Below are positions 2,993-46,401 of a stretch of DNA of 64,000 nt, piece by piece. Where the stretch lies: the NCBI GenBank assembly GCA_964618845.1, contig CAZUCU010000001.1, positions 468 to 64,467 on the forward strand. Reading direction: 5' to 3'. Numbering within the stretch: position 1 is the stretch's first letter; each line of letters begins with the position of its first letter. The notes beneath the pieces were generated by a model. The model worked only from the letters and a program-made list of their open reading frames with translations. It ran no database searches and was not told the DNA's origin. The DNA comes from an uncultured Candidatus Saccharibacteria bacterium (lineage in GTDB: Bacteria > Patescibacteriota > Minisyncoccia > Phycocordibacterales > JAACPR01). A program made the position numbers and the translations under genes.

Positions 2993-4078
2993 ATGGATAT
3001 AGAAAATAAAAAAGTTTTAGTAGGTTTATCGGGAGGAGTAGATTCGTCTGTTGCTTGTTTGTTGCTCAAAGAACAAAAATATTCTGTAGAAGCTGTATTT
3101 ATTAAAGTTTGGCAACCTGATTTTATTGAATGTAATTGGCGAGAAGAGATGCGAGATGCAATGCGAGTTTGTATTCAGCTTCAAATCCCTTTTCATTTTT
3201 TAGATTTAGAAAAAGAGTATAAAAAGAGGGTTGCGGATTATTTTATAAACGAATATAAAGCAGGTAGGACCCCAAATCCAGACGTAGTATGTAATAAATA
3301 TATTAAATTTGGTCACATGTTTGATTATGCTAAAAAAAATGGATTTGATTTTGTGGCTACAGGACATTATGTTAGAAATCTAAAAAATAAACTTTTTCGT
3401 GGTAAGGATTTAGACAAAGACCAAAGTTATTTTTTGTGGTCGCTTACCAAAAAAAGATTAAATAAGATTTTGTTTCCAGTAGGAGATTTAAATAAAGAAG
3501 AAGTTAGAAAAATTGCAAAAAAACATAATTTATTCAATTCTAAAAAAAAAGATTCGCAGGGTATTTGTATATTGGGCCCAATTAATATGAAAGATTTTTT
3601 AAAAAAATATATTGATGTCAAAAAAGGTGATGTTTTAGATAAAAGTGGTTCAATTATAGGAACGCACGAAGGTGCAATTTTATATACTATTGGTGAAAGA
3701 CATGGATTTACAATCGATAAAAAACATAAGAGTTCGAGTGATAAAACCCTGTATGTAATAGAAAAAGATGTGGCAAAAAACATAATTATTGTTTCAACGA
3801 GAAACGAGAAGCGAGAAGTAAGAAATATTGAATTGAAAGATGTTTCGTTTATAGATAAAGAAGTTGAGGGAGAAATAGAAATTCAAACAAGATATAGACA
3901 AAAGCCACAAAAAGGAATTTTATTAATAGATAAAAGGGAGAAGCGAGAAGTAAGAAGTAAGAAGTGGAAATTAGAAGCAAATTTTGAAGAAGACCCAGCC
4001 GTTGGGCAATCTGTTGTTTTCTATAAAGGCGATGAGTGTTTAGGTGGAGGAATTATAGATAAAATATTTTTTGAATAA
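2993..4078 (+). CDS. mnmA: tRNA-specific 2-thiouridylase MnmA
   Basis: PP-loop motif VLVGLSGGVDSSVA at the N-terminus. Conserved GHY and cysteine-containing segments of MnmA. 361 aa. Contains in-frame insertions derived from GAGAAGC repeats (EKREVRN and REKREVRSKK). Confidence 0.85.
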   Translation: MDIENKKVLVGLSGGVDSSVACLLLKEQKYSVEAVFIKVWQPDFIECNWREEMRDAMRVCIQLQIPFHFLDLEKEYKKRVADYFINEYKAGRTPNPDVVCNKYIKFGHMFDYAKKNGFDFVATGHYVRNLKNKLFRGKDLDKDQSYFLWSLTKKRLNKILFPVGDLNKEEVRKIAKKHNLFNSKKKDSQGICILGPINMKDFLKKYIDVKKGDVLDKSGSIIGTHEGAILYTIGERHGFTIDKKHKSSSDKTLYVIEKDVAKNIIIVSTRNEKREVRNIELKDVSFIDKEVEGEIEIQTRYRQKPQKGILLIDKREKREVRSKKWKLEANFEEDPAVGQSVVFYKGDECLGGGIIDKIFFE

Positions 4079-19003: not shown

Positions 19004-19972
19004 ATGAAAAGAAAATTAGTTACAGGTATAAAACCTACTGGAAAGCCCCATCTGGGAAATTATTTTGGGGTTTTAAAAAGATTAAAGTCCTATCAAGAAG
19101 AATATGATTGTCGAATTTTTATTGCTGATTTACATGCTTTGACGTCAGTTTCAAACAAAAAAGAATTGGAAGAAAATATTTTTGATTTAATGGTGATGTA
19201 TTTGGCGATTGGTTTAGATCCTTCCAAAACTATCTTGTATAGACAATCAGATATTTCGCAAGTTTCAGAACTCTCTTGGATTTTTGGTTCGCTTGCAACT
19301 ATGCCATATTTAATGAGATCTCATTCATTCAAAGATGCTGAAGCCAAAAATAAAGAAATTAATGTTGCTACTTTTTCATATCCGCTTTTGATGGCTTCGG
19401 ATATTTTGCTTAGTGATGCGGATGTAGTTCCTATAGGCAAAGATCAAAAACAGCACGTTGAAATCACCAGAGACATGGCAAGAAAATTTAATCAAACTTT
19501 TGGAGAAACCTTCAAAGAACCAGAGGAATTAATAGAAAAAGAAACAGAAACAATTATTGGAACAGATGGACAAAAAATGAGTAAAAGTTATGACAATGTT
19601 ATTCCGCTTTTTGCATCACCTGACGAAATTAAAAAAATTGTAATGAGTATTCCAACCGATTCCAAAGGTATTGATGAGCCAAAAGATCCTGATAATAACC
19701 TGCTTTTTCAAGTTCATTCCATGATACTTATGAGTAATGCTGATAAAAGGGCCCTGCGGGCCAAATATGAGGCTCCTGGGCTTAGTTATAAGGTAGCAAA
19801 AGAAGATTTAATACGAGATTTGGACGCTCTTATTGCACCACTTCGTGCAGAAAAACAAAAACGGGAAGGGAATAGAAGTAAAGTATTAAAGATTTATAAA
19901 AAAGGAGGAGAGAAAATGAAGAAAATTGCGGAGAAAAAGATGGTAGAAATTCGATCTAAAGTTGGGTTGTAG
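19004..19972 (+). CDS. trpS: Tryptophan--tRNA ligase
   Basis: Class I motifs: PTGKPHLGNY (HIGH-like) and KMSKS. 322 aa. Confidence 0.9.
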   Translation: MKRKLVTGIKPTGKPHLGNYFGVLKRLKSYQEEYDCRIFIADLHALTSVSNKKELEENIFDLMVMYLAIGLDPSKTILYRQSDISQVSELSWIFGSLATMPYLMRSHSFKDAEAKNKEINVATFSYPLLMASDILLSDADVVPIGKDQKQHVEITRDMARKFNQTFGETFKEPEELIEKETETIIGTDGQKMSKSYDNVIPLFASPDEIKKIVMSIPTDSKGIDEPKDPDNNLLFQVHSMILMSNADKRALRAKYEAPGLSYKVAKEDLIRDLDALIAPLRAEKQKREGNRSKVLKIYKKGGEKMKKIAEKKMVEIRSKVGL

Positions 19973-19973
19973 A

Positions 19974-20070
19974 CCGTCATTCCCAAAACTATATAGAGAA
20001 TCTACACTTAGTAAAATAATGCTTAAAAAGCACGGACCTCCGATATTGCTTCGGAGGTGACAACTCTTTT
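19974..20070 (+). repeat. Copy A of a roughly 100-bp hairpin-containing repeat element (the second copy is at 45774-45863)
   Basis: Shared blocks CGTCATTCCC, ATGCTTWWAAAG, AAGCRYGGACCYCCGATANNGCTTCGGRGGTGAC. The hairpin at 20036-20058 carries compensatory T-A to C-G changes relative to copy B. Confidence 0.55.
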
Positions 20071-20150
20071 ATATTTCTTTGTTTTAAAACTTCATAAATT
20101 CTTCAACATTTCTTTATCAGGATTTAACCTCTTTTTGATAGCATTGTTCT

Positions 20151-20537
20151 ATGCTAAAGGATTTTGATAGTTGGAATCTAATAAAGAAAAGAATAGACCT
20201 AGAAAATAGGGTACCTATTAGGGTTGGTGAGATATTTTGGTGTAAGCTTGGTCTAAATATTGGTGTTGAACAGAATGGAAACGAAAAAGAATTTACTAGA
20301 CCAGTTATAATTATAAAAAAATTCTCAAATCAAATTGTTTTAATTGCTCCATTAACAACCAAACCCCATAAAGGCAATTGGTATTTAGAAAAAGATATTC
20401 TTGGAATTAAACAACAAATAATCCTAAATCAAATCAAACCAGTTGATGTTAAAAGGTTAACAAAAAGTTTGGGAGAGATATCTGAAAAAGAAGTTCAACT
20501 AATATTATATGAGTATTTTAAATTGCTTATTCTTTAA
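20151..20537 (+). CDS. PemK/MazF-family toxin-like protein (putative endoribonuclease) with no recognisable antitoxin partner
   Basis: GEIFWCKLGLNIGVEQNGNEKEFTRPVIIIK ... IAPLTT resembles the MazF/PemK signature (GxIxxxDxxP...RPxxVxS...xxPxTS). 128 aa. Confidence 0.5.
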   Translation: MLKDFDSWNLIKKRIDLENRVPIRVGEIFWCKLGLNIGVEQNGNEKEFTRPVIIIKKFSNQIVLIAPLTTKPHKGNWYLEKDILGIKQQIILNQIKPVDVKRLTKSLGEISEKEVQLILYEYFKLLIL

Positions 20538-20693
20538 TGTATAAAGACCGCTTGTGGCGGTCTTCGGCTGGGTTACCCCAAACTGTATGTGTCACTATTA
20601 TAACAAAATTATTTTGTCAAAGTCAACAAATGCCCCACAATGGCGAAGCCATCGCGGGGCTATAAATCACAAAATTTTTTGGGCAAAACTTGG

Positions 20694-21659
20694 ATGGATT
20701 ATGTGGGGGAGAGAGAGTTGAAAATTGAAAAACAAGGATTTTTGTGGTATTTTATAGATATGAAAAAGTGGTTTGGCGGTATTATTTTGATAATTATTTG
20801 TATAGCTATTTGGGGTTATATTTTTTATTTACAAAAATCTAAATTTGATTTGGCTTACGTAGACACAAAAGGTCAGGTTTGGCTCAAAGATTTGAATGGT
20901 TTTAAAAAAGACTTGATGGTTGTTGATGAAGCTGATGAGCAAGACACAAAAATAGATACTCCTAGAACTATAAGTGTTTCACCTAATAATAAAATGATCG
21001 CAGTAGATTTATTTAGACAAAATAACTCCGAAAAAGGCGTTGCAATCTATGACATAAAATCAGCAAATATTAAATTTATAACTGAAGGTGAAATAGGTAA
21101 TTTTGCATGGTCCCCTGATTCTAAGTATCTTCTAATGAATTCATATACATATGCAGACAAAATCTACTCAATTGAGTTTGGCGAATTAATTGAATTTCAG
21201 GAAGCTCCAAGATATAGACAAGACGGTGATTACTCAGCAGAAAAGGCATTTTATCGTATGGTAAGTTGGGGAGAATCTGACCGAGCTTATTTTATGAAAA
21301 TAAATTTAAATGATAATAGCCAACAAACTGTCTTATTTAATTTGATTACAAAAGAAGAAAAAGTAGTAGAAGATCTAAAAGAAACATCTTTTGATAAATT
21401 AAAACTAGCTTTTGGTTCTTTCGAGCCAAAACTTCTTGACTCTATGGACAATACCAAAAGTCCAAATGAACCTTTTTATCGTCGTCAAGAAAGACCAGGA
21501 AATAAAACACTTTGTGGATTTGAAAATAAAATAATCTATCCAACAAAATCTTTGAAAGAAATTTTATACAGAGATTATTCTTTGGCTATTTTTGATACTA
21601 AGACACAGAAAACCAAAAGAATCGTTGAAAACATAATAGACTATTCTTGTTTTTGGTAG
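20694..21659 (+). CDS. Membrane-anchored protein with TolB/PD40-like beta-propeller repeats. Start uncertain (20640, 20694 or 20760).
   Basis: TM GIILIIICIAIWGYIFYL. Repeats such as SPNNKMIAVDL and WSPDSKYLLMNSY are typical of PD40 blades. Confidence 0.45.
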   Translation: MDYVGERELKIEKQGFLWYFIDMKKWFGGIILIIICIAIWGYIFYLQKSKFDLAYVDTKGQVWLKDLNGFKKDLMVVDEADEQDTKIDTPRTISVSPNNKMIAVDLFRQNNSEKGVAIYDIKSANIKFITEGEIGNFAWSPDSKYLLMNSYTYADKIYSIEFGELIEFQEAPRYRQDGDYSAEKAFYRMVSWGESDRAYFMKINLNDNSQQTVLFNLITKEEKVVEDLKETSFDKLKLAFGSFEPKLLDSMDNTKSPNEPFYRRQERPGNKTLCGFENKIIYPTKSLKEILYRDYSLAIFDTKTQKTKRIVENIIDYSCFW

Positions 21660-30433: not shown

Positions 30434-31465
30434 ATGTCACAATTAGAATTTAAAAAAATAGATAACCCCAAAAATTATCAAAATTTTATTATTGAAAACA
30501 GTGGTAAATTTACTCAGGCAGATTTTTATGGAGATTGGCATTTAAATTTGGGAAAAGGTGTATACCATTTTATCATCTTAAATCAAGATAAACCGGTTCT
30601 TTTTATGCAAATAATTGAAATTAATGCACTTTTTAATCAAAAATTTTTATATTCTCCATATGGACCGATTTATAAAAAAGAGTTCTTAAAAGAAATTTTA
30701 CCCGTGCTTAAAAATGGATTAATAAAAGAATTTAAAAACACAAAAAATTTCTTTTGCCGGTTAGACTTTTGTCCAACATTAAACAAAGAACAAGAAGATT
30801 TAATAAAAAAATATTTTTGGAAATCGAATAAAAAAATCTACAAAGGGTCTCTTTTTCAACCAAGAGACGAGTGGGTATTAGATTTAAACAAAGAGGAAGA
30901 TGAGATTTATAAAAATATTGACAAAAAAAATAGATATTGTATTAGGCAAGCTGAAAAAAGGGGAGTGGTGGTAGAAATTATTACTGATCAGTTTAATAGA
31001 TATTTTGAAGAATTTTACAAATTACTTTTGGAAACTTCAAAGAGAAATAATTTTGGAATTCATAAAAAAGAATATTATCAGGAAATTTTCAATTCAATAC
31101 AAAAAAATAAAAATGGATATTTAGTTAGATCAATTTATAAAGGAAAAATTAATGATTCTCTTTTATTTTTAAACTTTGGAAAGACAACAATGTTTATATT
31201 TGGTGCTTCAAGTGACTTAAATAGGACTCTACCTACAGCTCACTTAGCTCAGTGGCATAGTATTCTGTACGCAAAAAGCATTGGTATGGATTTATACAAT
31301 TTTGGTGGAATATCGACTGATTCTGATCCAATACCGAGTCTTGAAAAAGTAACAAGGTTTAAGAAGAGATTTGGGGGATATATATTTAAACATTCTCAAT
31401 ATTTTGATCTGATAATTAATAGGTTTTGGTATTTGTTGTTTATAATAAGAAAATTTATAAAATAG
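30434..31465 (+). CDS. Putative FemAB-family peptidoglycan aminoacyltransferase (start taken at MSQLEF)
   Basis: Size and composition fit FemX-like GNAT-fold proteins. The neighbourhood (M23 peptidase, murG, gltX) is consistent. Motif recognition is weak. Confidence 0.45.
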   Translation: MSQLEFKKIDNPKNYQNFIIENSGKFTQADFYGDWHLNLGKGVYHFIILNQDKPVLFMQIIEINALFNQKFLYSPYGPIYKKEFLKEILPVLKNGLIKEFKNTKNFFCRLDFCPTLNKEQEDLIKKYFWKSNKKIYKGSLFQPRDEWVLDLNKEEDEIYKNIDKKNRYCIRQAEKRGVVVEIITDQFNRYFEEFYKLLLETSKRNNFGIHKKEYYQEIFNSIQKNKNGYLVRSIYKGKINDSLLFLNFGKTTMFIFGASSDLNRTLPTAHLAQWHSILYAKSIGMDLYNFGGISTDSDPIPSLEKVTRFKKRFGGYIFKHSQYFDLIINRFWYLLFIIRKFIK

Positions 31466-45773: not shown

Positions 45774-45863
45774 CGTCATTCCCGTGAAGACGGGAATTCA
45801 TGCTTTTAAAGATATTAATAAAGCGTGGACCCCCGATACGGCTTCGGGGGTGACGATTATTTT
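45774..45863 (+). repeat. Copy B of the roughly 100-bp hairpin-containing repeat element (copy A at 19974-20070). Contains hairpins ATTCCCGT-GAAG-ACGGGAAT and CCCCCGA-loop-TCGGGGG.
   Basis: Direct alignment by eye with copy A. See findings. Confidence 0.55.
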
Positions 45864-45909: not shown

Positions 45910-46401
45910 TCACGCCATTTTTAATTTTGATTTTAGGAGTCGTATGTTGTCGGTATTTCGATCTAATTGATTAGAATGTGAAAGCTGAATTTTTTTGATT
46001 TCTTGAACATCACTTTTTACTTCTTTCATATCTATTTTTAATTCGTGTATATCTTCTTCAACTCTATCAAATTGATTTTTGACAACAATTGTAAAATTTT
46101 CAAAATCTGTTCTTAATTCGCTTATTTCCGATTTCATAGAAACAATACTCTCTTTTATAGAAACAATATCTGTTTTTGTAGAAACAATACTCTCTTTTAT
46201 AGAAACAATATCTGTTTTCGTAGACACAATATCTGTTTTCATAGAAACAATATCTGTTTTTGTAGACAAAATATCTTCTTTCATTAAAGATATATCTTTT
46301 TTCATTGGATTAATCACTTTTTTTGTGTGAACAGCAAAAGCACCATTTATTGAAGTATTAACTATAAAAGAAATTTGTTTTAAATCATTTTTTGTTAACA
46401 T
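45910..46401 (-). CDS. Coiled-coil protein with about eight tandem heptad repeats (TKTDIVS / IKESIVS), encoded by 21-bp DNA tandem repeats
   Basis: Protein repeats KTDIVSMKTDIVSTKTDIVSIKESIVSTKTDIVSIKESIVSMKSEI. DNA repeats span 46135-46290. Confidence 0.5.
   Translation of the reverse strand: MLTKNDLKQISFIVNTSINGAFAVHTKKVINPMKKDISLMKEDILSTKTDIVSMKTDIVSTKTDIVSIKESIVSTKTDIVSIKESIVSMKSEISELRTDFENFTIVVKNQFDRVEEDIHELKIDMKEVKSDVQEIKKIQLSHSNQLDRNTDNIRLLKSKLKMA

Follow-up and report, generated by a model that had tools for sequence, protein, structure and literature searches.

The genome of an uncultured Candidatus Saccharibacteria bacterium contains a MazF/PemK-family toxin gene that is followed, on the opposite strand, by a predicted gene for a small structured RNA, and we regard the two with considerable confidence as a conserved gene pair. 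The pair lies in a stretch of 64,000 nucleotides of contig CAZUCU010000001.1 (hereafter the window, meaning the whole stretch that was analysed). Neither the window nor the related loci encode a conserved protein partner next to the toxin. Within the module, the feature that varies least is the strong promoter facing the toxin gene at its 3' end; this promoter is predicted usually to yield an RNA with a structured 5' domain. This RNA probably replaces the protein antidote that usually accompanies a MazF toxin, as suggested by its conservation beside the toxin gene. For the way in which it does so, we give about an even chance to a type I-like toxin-antitoxin (TA) module, in which an antisense RNA would control the MazF toxin by pairing with the 3' part of the toxin mRNA, with head-on transcription possibly contributing.

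A MazF-type toxin without a protein partner

The toxin open reading frame (ORF) contains the motifs GEIFW, TRPVIIIK and IAPLTT, and residues 25-118 of its product match the Pfam family PF02452 (PemK_toxin) with 43 bits, above the family cutoff of 23.1 (E 5.8e-11). In an AlphaFold2 model built on 25 homologues (pLDDT 84), the MazF beta core, an SH3-like beta-barrel of the MazF/Kid fold, is preceded by an N-terminal helix at residues 5-18 and followed by a C-terminal one. When the model was compared with the Protein Data Bank by Foldseek, the top 50 matches were all MazF-family chains (MazF, EndoA/YdcE, MoxT and related mRNA interferases), including MazF structures from S. aureus, B. subtilis, M. 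tuberculosis and E. coli. The best match had an E-value of 2.8e-7 and a probability of 1.0, with TM-scores of ~0.65-0.73 among the top matches, and sequence similarity to the solved MazF structures is weak yet consistent. R50 does not vary among the 25 homologues, and the conservation of T69 exceeds 90%; both residues align with the RPV and AAIT motifs of the S. aureus and Bacillus MazF proteins, which are known to carry the catalytic arginine and threonine (R25 and T48 in B. subtilis numbering). The Pfam match, the MazF fold and the conserved arginine and threonine make it very probable that the protein is a MazF-type endoribonuclease, predicted to be active, with a family-specific N-terminal extension. 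The helix that forms this extension is lysine-rich, carries the motif KDFDxWNxxKK and is additional to canonical MazF.

A profile search of 1.84 billion representative proteins found 1,718 clusters (50% identity) of the toxin family at E<=1e-10, and almost all of the best 150 of these cover nearly the whole profile, including the N-terminal helix. At least 580 relatives are encoded in species-representative genomes, nearly all of which are labelled Patescibacteria, or candidate phyla radiation (CPR). From species-representative genomes and metagenomes together, we collected 173 related loci, referred to below by L numbers where they need to be told apart. PHROGs described the toxin only as a 'MazF-like growth inhibitor', none of the PADLOC defence-system models matched, and no second toxin gene was found in the 64-kb window.

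A protein antitoxin was sought on both flanks of the toxin gene. Across 160 distinct loci, no conserved ORF of 25-140 aa was found on either strand within ~450 nt upstream and 550 nt downstream of the toxin gene. When ORFs of 30-140 aa on both strands around these loci were clustered, the clusters consisted of one DNA motif translated in three frames, or of the antisense strand of the toxin gene; the ORFs of relatives that lie over the RNA module use all three frames or start inside the promoter. Homologues with 45-73% identity adjoin differing housekeeping genes (among them PheRS, AspRS/MraZ, a peptidoglycan-binding protein and glycosyltransferases), and none of them has a called small gene next to it. 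In the window, four small ORFs were considered and rejected as antitoxin genes. The 42-aa ORF at 20537-20665, which one public annotation calls as a gene, overlaps the toxin stop codon and lies over the hairpins of the RNA; like the 22-aa minus-strand ORF at 20527-20595 and two upstream ORFs of 32 and 36 aa, it lacks conservation. The small ORFs on both toxin flanks are chance ORFs.

A preliminary description, made from the sequence of the window alone, had called the gene a MazF/PemK toxin and had noted that no small antitoxin ORF adjoins it. The first call agrees with the PF02452 score above the cutoff, with the conserved arginine and threonine, and with the model, which aligns to MazF structures and has no non-toxin SH3-like fold among its top 50 matches; the second agrees with the small-ORF search on both flanks and at the ~160 distinct loci. 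The toxin shares its fold, its Pfam family and its arginine and threonine, aligned with the catalytic residues of Bacillus and Staphylococcus MazF, with the type II systems MazEF, PemIK and Kis-Kid. Unlike the toxin genes of these systems, it has no adjacent, co-transcribed protein antitoxin gene: a gene of the MazE/PemI type is present neither upstream nor downstream, in the window or in the relatives. The locus further differs from them in the extra N-terminal helix, in a toxin promoter of its own that probably gives a leaderless mRNA, and in the convergent RNA gene that would replace the antitoxin gene.

The predicted convergent RNA module in the window and its relatives

The predicted RNA of the window (Table 1) would begin with a single-stranded 5' leader, ACAUACAGU. 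Hairpins P1 and P2 would follow, separated by a linker of 2 nt, and a short U/A tail would reach as far as the toxin stop codon (20535-20537). P2 has an A-tract on one flank and a U-tract on the other. The promoter of the RNA is the best promoter match of the region, with 11/12 consensus positions plus the TG extension in a scan whose consensus is tuned to sigma-70 organisms. A 55-nt RNA from this position folds with -20 kcal/mol (z = -4.95). A covariance model, R1, for which 11 relatives from the window's clade but not the window itself were used, finds positions 20538-20588 of the minus strand in an unfiltered scan of the 64 kb (50.1 bits, E 2.8e-11). The next-best match has 12.6 bits, and R1 found no second element in the window. 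R1 is limited to the window's clade, as MAFFT misaligned the two types of P1, and the wider family was analysed with custom scripts. Rfam 15 has no match in the window at its gathering score other than a tRNA, and between 19950 and 20780 it gives only chance-level matches (E>0.7).

Table 1. Positions of the toxin gene, the predicted RNA gene and their signals in the window.
Feature	Position	Strand	Description
MazF/PemK-family toxin gene	20151-20537	+	ATG to TAA, 128 aa; Pfam, AlphaFold2 and Foldseek
Predicted small RNA, ~50 nt	~20590-20538	-	Covariance model and fold; start inferred from promoter position
Hairpin P1, UUGGG-GUAA-CCCAG	20568-20581	-	5 bp, GNRA tetraloop on the minus strand
Hairpin P2, GAAGACCGC-CACAA-GCGGUCUUU	20543-20565	-	9 bp, GC-rich, terminator-like
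Predicted small RNA promoter	20597-20626	-	-35 TTGACT 20626-20621; 18-nt spacer; TG 20605-20604; -10 TATAAT 20602-20597
Predicted extended -10 of toxin gene, TG-A-TAGCAT	20136-20144	+	Sequence and relatives' consensus; ends 6 nt before ATG
13-bp GC-rich hairpin	20632-20660		Just outside the -35 box of the small RNA; not sequence-conserved in relatives

The flanks of all aligned relatives contain a common non-coding module that starts directly after the toxin stop codon. Read on the minus strand, it comprises a promoter in which 16-18 nt separate the -35 box (TTGACA or TTGACT) from an extended -10 box (TGnTAnnnT), and then, after ~7 nt, a short A-rich leader (ACAAAU or ACAGUU), the tetraloop hairpin P1, a linker of 1-3 nt, the GC-rich hairpin P2 and a tail that reaches the stop codon. 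In its majority form, the RNA reads ACAAAU-GGCUUCGGCC-P2. A recognisable P1 accompanies at least 143 of the 179 homologous toxin genes that have enough downstream sequence (at least 80%); these genes come mostly from Patescibacteria (CPR), with some from plasmids and prophages of Campylobacterota, and many of those that lack a recognisable P1 are variants or truncated genes. At the same position, 142 of the 179 loci have a convergent promoter that scores 10 or more on our scale, on which a perfect match is ~13. The TG extension is present in 86 of the 125 distinct loci that reach this score.

Both hairpins show covariation. Eight of the nine P2 pairs have changed on both sides within the window's clade, and 90% of the cells are paired; the covariation score of 0.369 compares with 0.154 in shuffled alignments (0 of 500 shuffles reach the observed value) and drops when the partners are slid against each other. 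The underlying alignment of 19 elements was fitted to the model and is hence biased towards the structure. P1 is invariant in this clade. Its stem covaries family-wide, with GGC/GCC in 57 cases, GCC/GGC in 18, GGG/CCC in 14 and CCC/GGG in 10, besides rarer types; as the family-wide hairpins were selected by folding, the evidence here is the variety of pair types and not the pairing itself. The loops reveal the strand. P1 has a UNCG or GNRA tetraloop in 97 of 118 cases when read on the minus strand and in 0 of 118 on the plus strand, and for P2 the counts are 64 of 78 and 2 of 78. This asymmetry cannot be explained at the level of DNA or by an RNA from the plus strand, which places the predicted RNA on the minus strand.

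Some genomes carry more than one module. In L011, and also in L012, two toxin-plus-RNA modules lie tail to tail on one contig. The RNA elements of L011 are at 3384-3436 (-) and 3675-3728 (+); the second module, beside a second PemK gene, is also found by R1, and the two RNAs have leader and P1 in common and different P2 stems. Further metagenome-assembled genomes with at least two modules are represented by L016 and L034, L021 and L093, and L045 and L057, and L129 and L168 have two each.

How the RNA may control the toxin

The toxin ATG is not preceded by a Shine-Dalgarno motif, and the toxin promoter is weak and has no -35 box. Among the 133 relatives with a confident start codon, TGnTAnnnT ends 6-8 nt before the start in 42, compared with 0 of 133 in a control placed within the coding sequence, and a Shine-Dalgarno-like motif precedes the start in 8. 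As the -10 box lies 6-8 nt before the start and Shine-Dalgarno motifs are rare, the toxin mRNA is likely to be leaderless in many members of the family, the one in the window included.

The type I-like scheme that we favour would work as follows. The compact two-gene module of ~0.5 kb (20136-20626) would express the MazF/PemK endoribonuclease from the extended -10 promoter of the toxin gene, probably as a leaderless mRNA, and the small structured RNA would be transcribed from its strong convergent promoter back towards the toxin stop codon. The toxin mRNA would cross the RNA gene, giving a complementarity of ~50 nt or more. An abundant antisense RNA would then keep toxin output low. Its duplex with the 3' part of the toxin mRNA would be cleaved and the message degraded, as happens in type I systems with a 3' overlap, and head-on transcription would help. 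Loss of the RNA would release the toxin.

Terminator-like signals bear on the overlap of the two transcripts. On the plus strand, only 2 of 105 loci have such a signal between the toxin stop codon and the RNA start, and the window has none between the stop codon and the RNA gene. As plus-strand terminators are nearly absent, the toxin transcript should usually cross the RNA gene, and the two RNAs would therefore be complementary. A minus-strand terminator-like signal is present in the RNA at 32 of the 105 loci. Of the 67 P2 hairpins of the largest clade, 46 lack a U-tract and are followed by an A-rich tail, and here the antisense RNA may continue into the toxin gene. At six loci (L026, L028, L030, L037, L071 and L168), the convergent promoter abuts the toxin stop codon and hairpins are missing, so a transcript from it would necessarily be antisense to the toxin coding region. 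In the window's clade, P2 with its A-tract and U-tract resembles a bidirectional terminator. Pairing of the 5' part of the RNA with the 5' end of the toxin mRNA was also considered and rejected, as the mean duplex energies of cognate pairs (-9.49 kcal/mol) and non-cognate pairs (-9.14 kcal/mol) hardly differ (p = 0.18).

Convergent type I systems provide the closest parallel in gene layout. In par of pAD1 (Fst RNA I/RNA II), the two genes share a bidirectional terminator, and txpA/RatA and bsrG/SR4 of B. subtilis overlap at their 3' ends; in such systems, the toxin mRNA is degraded once the antisense RNA has paired with its 3' part. Here, too, the toxin and small RNA genes are arranged tail to tail, the RNA gene is predicted to be cis-encoded on the opposite strand with a strong promoter of its own, and in the window's clade a GC-rich hairpin that resembles a bidirectional terminator, flanked by an A-tract and a U-tract, lies between the genes. 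The toxins of those systems are membrane peptides of fewer than 60 aa, whereas the present one is a 128-aa protein with an RNase fold, and the RNA is shorter (~50 nt) and its loops are closed by UUCG or GNRA instead of being open for recognition. SymE/SymR and RalR/RalA of E. coli are type I systems with larger, non-membrane toxins, and thus set a precedent for an antisense RNA that controls a protein toxin targeting nucleic acids. However, the region of symE that SymR overlaps is the 5' end with the ribosome-binding site, and RalA works in trans together with Hfq, whereas the RNA described here is at the 3' end of a toxin gene that looks leaderless. The toxin families of SymE and RalR are unrelated to the MazF toxin.

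Several observations weigh against the type I-like scheme. The promoter and terminator calls come from consensus scans tuned to sigma-70 organisms. A small hydrophobic peptide, the typical type I toxin, is replaced here by a soluble protein of the MazF fold, although exceptions to this rule are known. Very stable tetraloops are ill suited to initiate loop-loop pairing and occur more typically in elements that confer stability or bind proteins. The sequence of the leader and P1 is more conserved than a purely cis-acting antisense RNA needs. Finally, P2 looks like a terminator in the window's clade, where the RNA would end at the stop codon and its pairing would be limited to the 3' untranslated region.

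Some of these points speak for another mode, similar to type III systems, in which the RNA would bind the MazF-like protein directly and block its active site. The ACA-containing leader would then be a pseudo-substrate (ACA occurs in known MazF cleavage sites), P1 and P2 a scaffold, and the lysine-rich N-terminal helix, which canonical MazF lacks, would hold the RNA. The sequence of leader and P1 is kept between toxins that are only ~40% identical, and in L011 it stays the same next to different P2 stems. The UUCG and GNRA tetraloops would suit a rigid protein-binding scaffold, and the type III toxin ToxN itself has a MazF/Kid-like fold. We nevertheless consider direct binding unlikely. With only 3-5 GC pairs in P1, a need for stability may by itself account for the apparent conservation of its sequence, and the predicted start site may put the ACA at the extreme 5' end of the RNA. 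The loci at which the promoter abuts the stop codon have kept the convergent promoter without P1 and P2. As the present module would, ToxIN, CptIN and TenpIN combine an RNA antitoxin with an endoribonuclease toxin, but all known type III antitoxins are tandem arrays encoded upstream on the same strand and processed by the toxin, whereas this RNA is single-copy, downstream and on the opposite strand. No ToxI-type tandem repeats and no direct-repeat family were found in 19800-20900, and the toxin belongs to Pfam PemK and not to ToxN. The preliminary description had already thought a classical ToxIN system unlikely, which is consistent with these findings. It had also proposed a solo toxin under RNA control of a type III-like kind, or one served by an unlinked antitoxin. 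Control by an RNA does appear likely, yet the downstream position of the RNA gives a layout closer to type I, and with a linked RNA gene an unlinked antitoxin is much less necessary.

It is also conceivable that the convergent promoter is all that matters, as a roadblock or insulator whose functionless transcript has hairpins that merely stop or stabilise transcription. The convergent promoter is strong where the toxin promoter is weak and without a -35 box, and no other part of the module is as constant, even at loci without the hairpins, as expected under transcriptional interference. However, minus-strand-specific UNCG and GNRA loops and covarying stems argue for selection on the RNA itself, and the RNA of the window's clade is predicted to end short of the toxin gene, which would make collisions within it rare. 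We rate interference alone as very improbable.

The toxin could, lastly, be solitary: it might depend on an unlinked antitoxin or regulator or on its own N-terminal helix, or be a tolerated housekeeping RNase, and the RNA would have another role, such as protecting the mRNA 3' end or acting in trans elsewhere. A solitary MazF, MazF-mx, exists in Myxococcus xanthus and is a precedent (PMC2701414). Against this stands the co-occurrence of the RNA gene and the toxin gene in at least 80% of loci, in very different neighbourhoods and moving as a unit, which makes a solitary toxin rather improbable. No cognate pairing of the RNA with the toxin 5' end was found.

Homologues outside the CPR return the argument to antisense control. 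They are encoded on plasmids of Campylobacter, Helicobacter and Nitratiruptor and in Campylobacter prophages, with 31-38% identity (L174/L178, C. jejuni pVir 30630-31130; L175, an H. suis plasmid; L176, a Nitratiruptor plasmid; L177, prophage CJIE4-3). In all four Campylobacterota homologues that were inspected, the stop codon is directly followed by two or three hairpins and a convergent extended -10 promoter. The homologue on pVir of C. jejuni 81-176 (134 aa, 37.6% identity over 77% of the query, E 2e-10) is the sole TA-type gene annotated on that plasmid, and its RNA region is longer than that of the window, with three hairpins and no sequence in common. Plasmid pVir is reported to hold a type I pair, CjrA/CjpT, of an antisense RNA antitoxin, CjrA, and a protein toxin (PMC10470494, PMC7826846; citing Shen et al. 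2016). CjpT may be the pVir homologue, but no source that names this protein CjpT was found in the literature or among cluster names.

Surroundings and mobility of the module

The toxin gene is preceded by the gene for tryptophanyl-tRNA synthetase (TrpRS, 19004-19972). The region between them (19973-20150) folds modestly (z = -2.6), and its sole strong hairpin is GGACCYCCGATAYKGCTTCGGRGGTGAC at 20034-20061 (+). This hairpin recurs once in the window, at 45827-45854, with a stem that differs by a compensatory change. Both copies directly follow a plus-strand gene and are followed by a T-rich tract, and the hairpin does not accompany the toxin relatives of other genomes; it is probably a recurrent terminator-type element, here placed after TrpRS. 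The preliminary description had seen a structured, non-tandem repeat element in this place and had treated the upstream 180 nt as a candidate control RNA. The hairpin and its second copy are real, and no tandem repeats occur in 19800-20900, but the element is of terminator type and not linked to the toxin. The upstream 180 nt were rejected as a control RNA: they hold this hairpin and the predicted toxin promoter, whose -10 box is all that relatives conserve there, and the conserved RNA gene is downstream on the minus strand.

On the other side, the GC-rich hairpin at 20632-20660 is terminator-like when read on the minus strand, where a 3-nt UUC loop (GGC-UUC-GCC) precedes AUUUGUUGAC, and no minus-strand gene lies upstream of it. 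It may insulate the small RNA promoter or mark the end of the toxin transcript, and its membership of the module is uncertain. The downstream gene encodes a 339-aa protein, which had been called TolB-like; this label corresponds to a weak match to PD40 repeats, below the Pfam cutoff. The start of its ORF (20640-21659) falls within the GC-rich hairpin, which covers 20640-20660, and the gene therefore probably begins at the ATG at 20762 (MKKW...) instead. A strain variant (L003) has a different gene in place of this ORF, and the two sequences diverge at ~20725. Genes for GIY-YIG (URI-type) nucleases of ~85-110 aa lie within ~0.7 kb of the toxin at four unrelated loci (L038, L050, L055 and L069), which may be a coincidence or related to mobility. 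Elsewhere in the window, at 46082-46333, a 21-nt unit (ATA[CT]CT[CG]T[CT]TTT[ATC][AG]TAGAAACA-like) is repeated in ~12 tandem copies, probably as a repetitive coding region of the minus strand.

At ~25 of 160 distinct loci (including L006-L010, L023, L076, L083, L084, L087, L100, L131, L159 and L172), a piece of host sequence is present as a direct duplication on either side of the toxin-plus-RNA unit, with a length of 28-150 nt and 73-100% identity. Upstream, the copy ends 6-100 nt ahead of the toxin start; downstream, it begins 4-100 nt past the -35 box of the RNA promoter, except in L159, where the duplicated piece reaches into this box. As the downstream copy never starts between the toxin and the RNA promoter, the toxin and RNA genes form one inserted unit and travel together. 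At three loci (L172, L076 and L159), the promoter of the downstream host gene and its first codons are part of the duplicated piece, so that this gene remains intact, and in L009/L010 and L023/L100 the piece holds the -10 box that now drives the toxin. This suggests an insertion cassette of 0.55-0.8 kb that makes long target duplications of variable length and is able to borrow a host promoter. No direct repeats were found to flank the copy in the window (z = 1.4). Combined with direct binding of the protein by the RNA, such a cassette would define a large, hitherto undescribed and repeat-free 'type III' class, found mainly in CPR/Patescibacteria, whose single-copy, ~50-nt two-hairpin RNA would neutralise the MazF protein by way of the extra N-terminal helix. 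Its cassette of 0.55-0.8 kb would spread by duplicating tens to more than 100 bp of target and capture a promoter, with a copy of the host promoter driving the leaderless toxin and the host gene left intact. We regard this combined proposal as a long shot, and continue to favour antisense control of the type I-like kind.

As the textbook example of a type II toxin, MazF is, to our knowledge, invariably treated together with its protein antidote. Here, a whole MazF subfamily is consistently without one and has a conserved convergent small RNA gene instead. If this RNA is the antitoxin, genome surveys that list such genes as "orphan" toxins misread them, and a single toxin family would straddle the division of TA systems into types I, II and III. 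Should CjpT be the pVir homologue, the antisense mechanism would have experimental support within the family, and the modules described here would form a large new branch of a system that is known but obscure; otherwise, a MazF toxin with an RNA partner would be new. The host duplications that flank the module suggest an unusual way of insertion and promoter capture. We know of almost no regulatory RNAs in CPR bacteria, and if the RNA acts as proposed, these bacteria would gain a widespread and easily recognised family of small RNAs.

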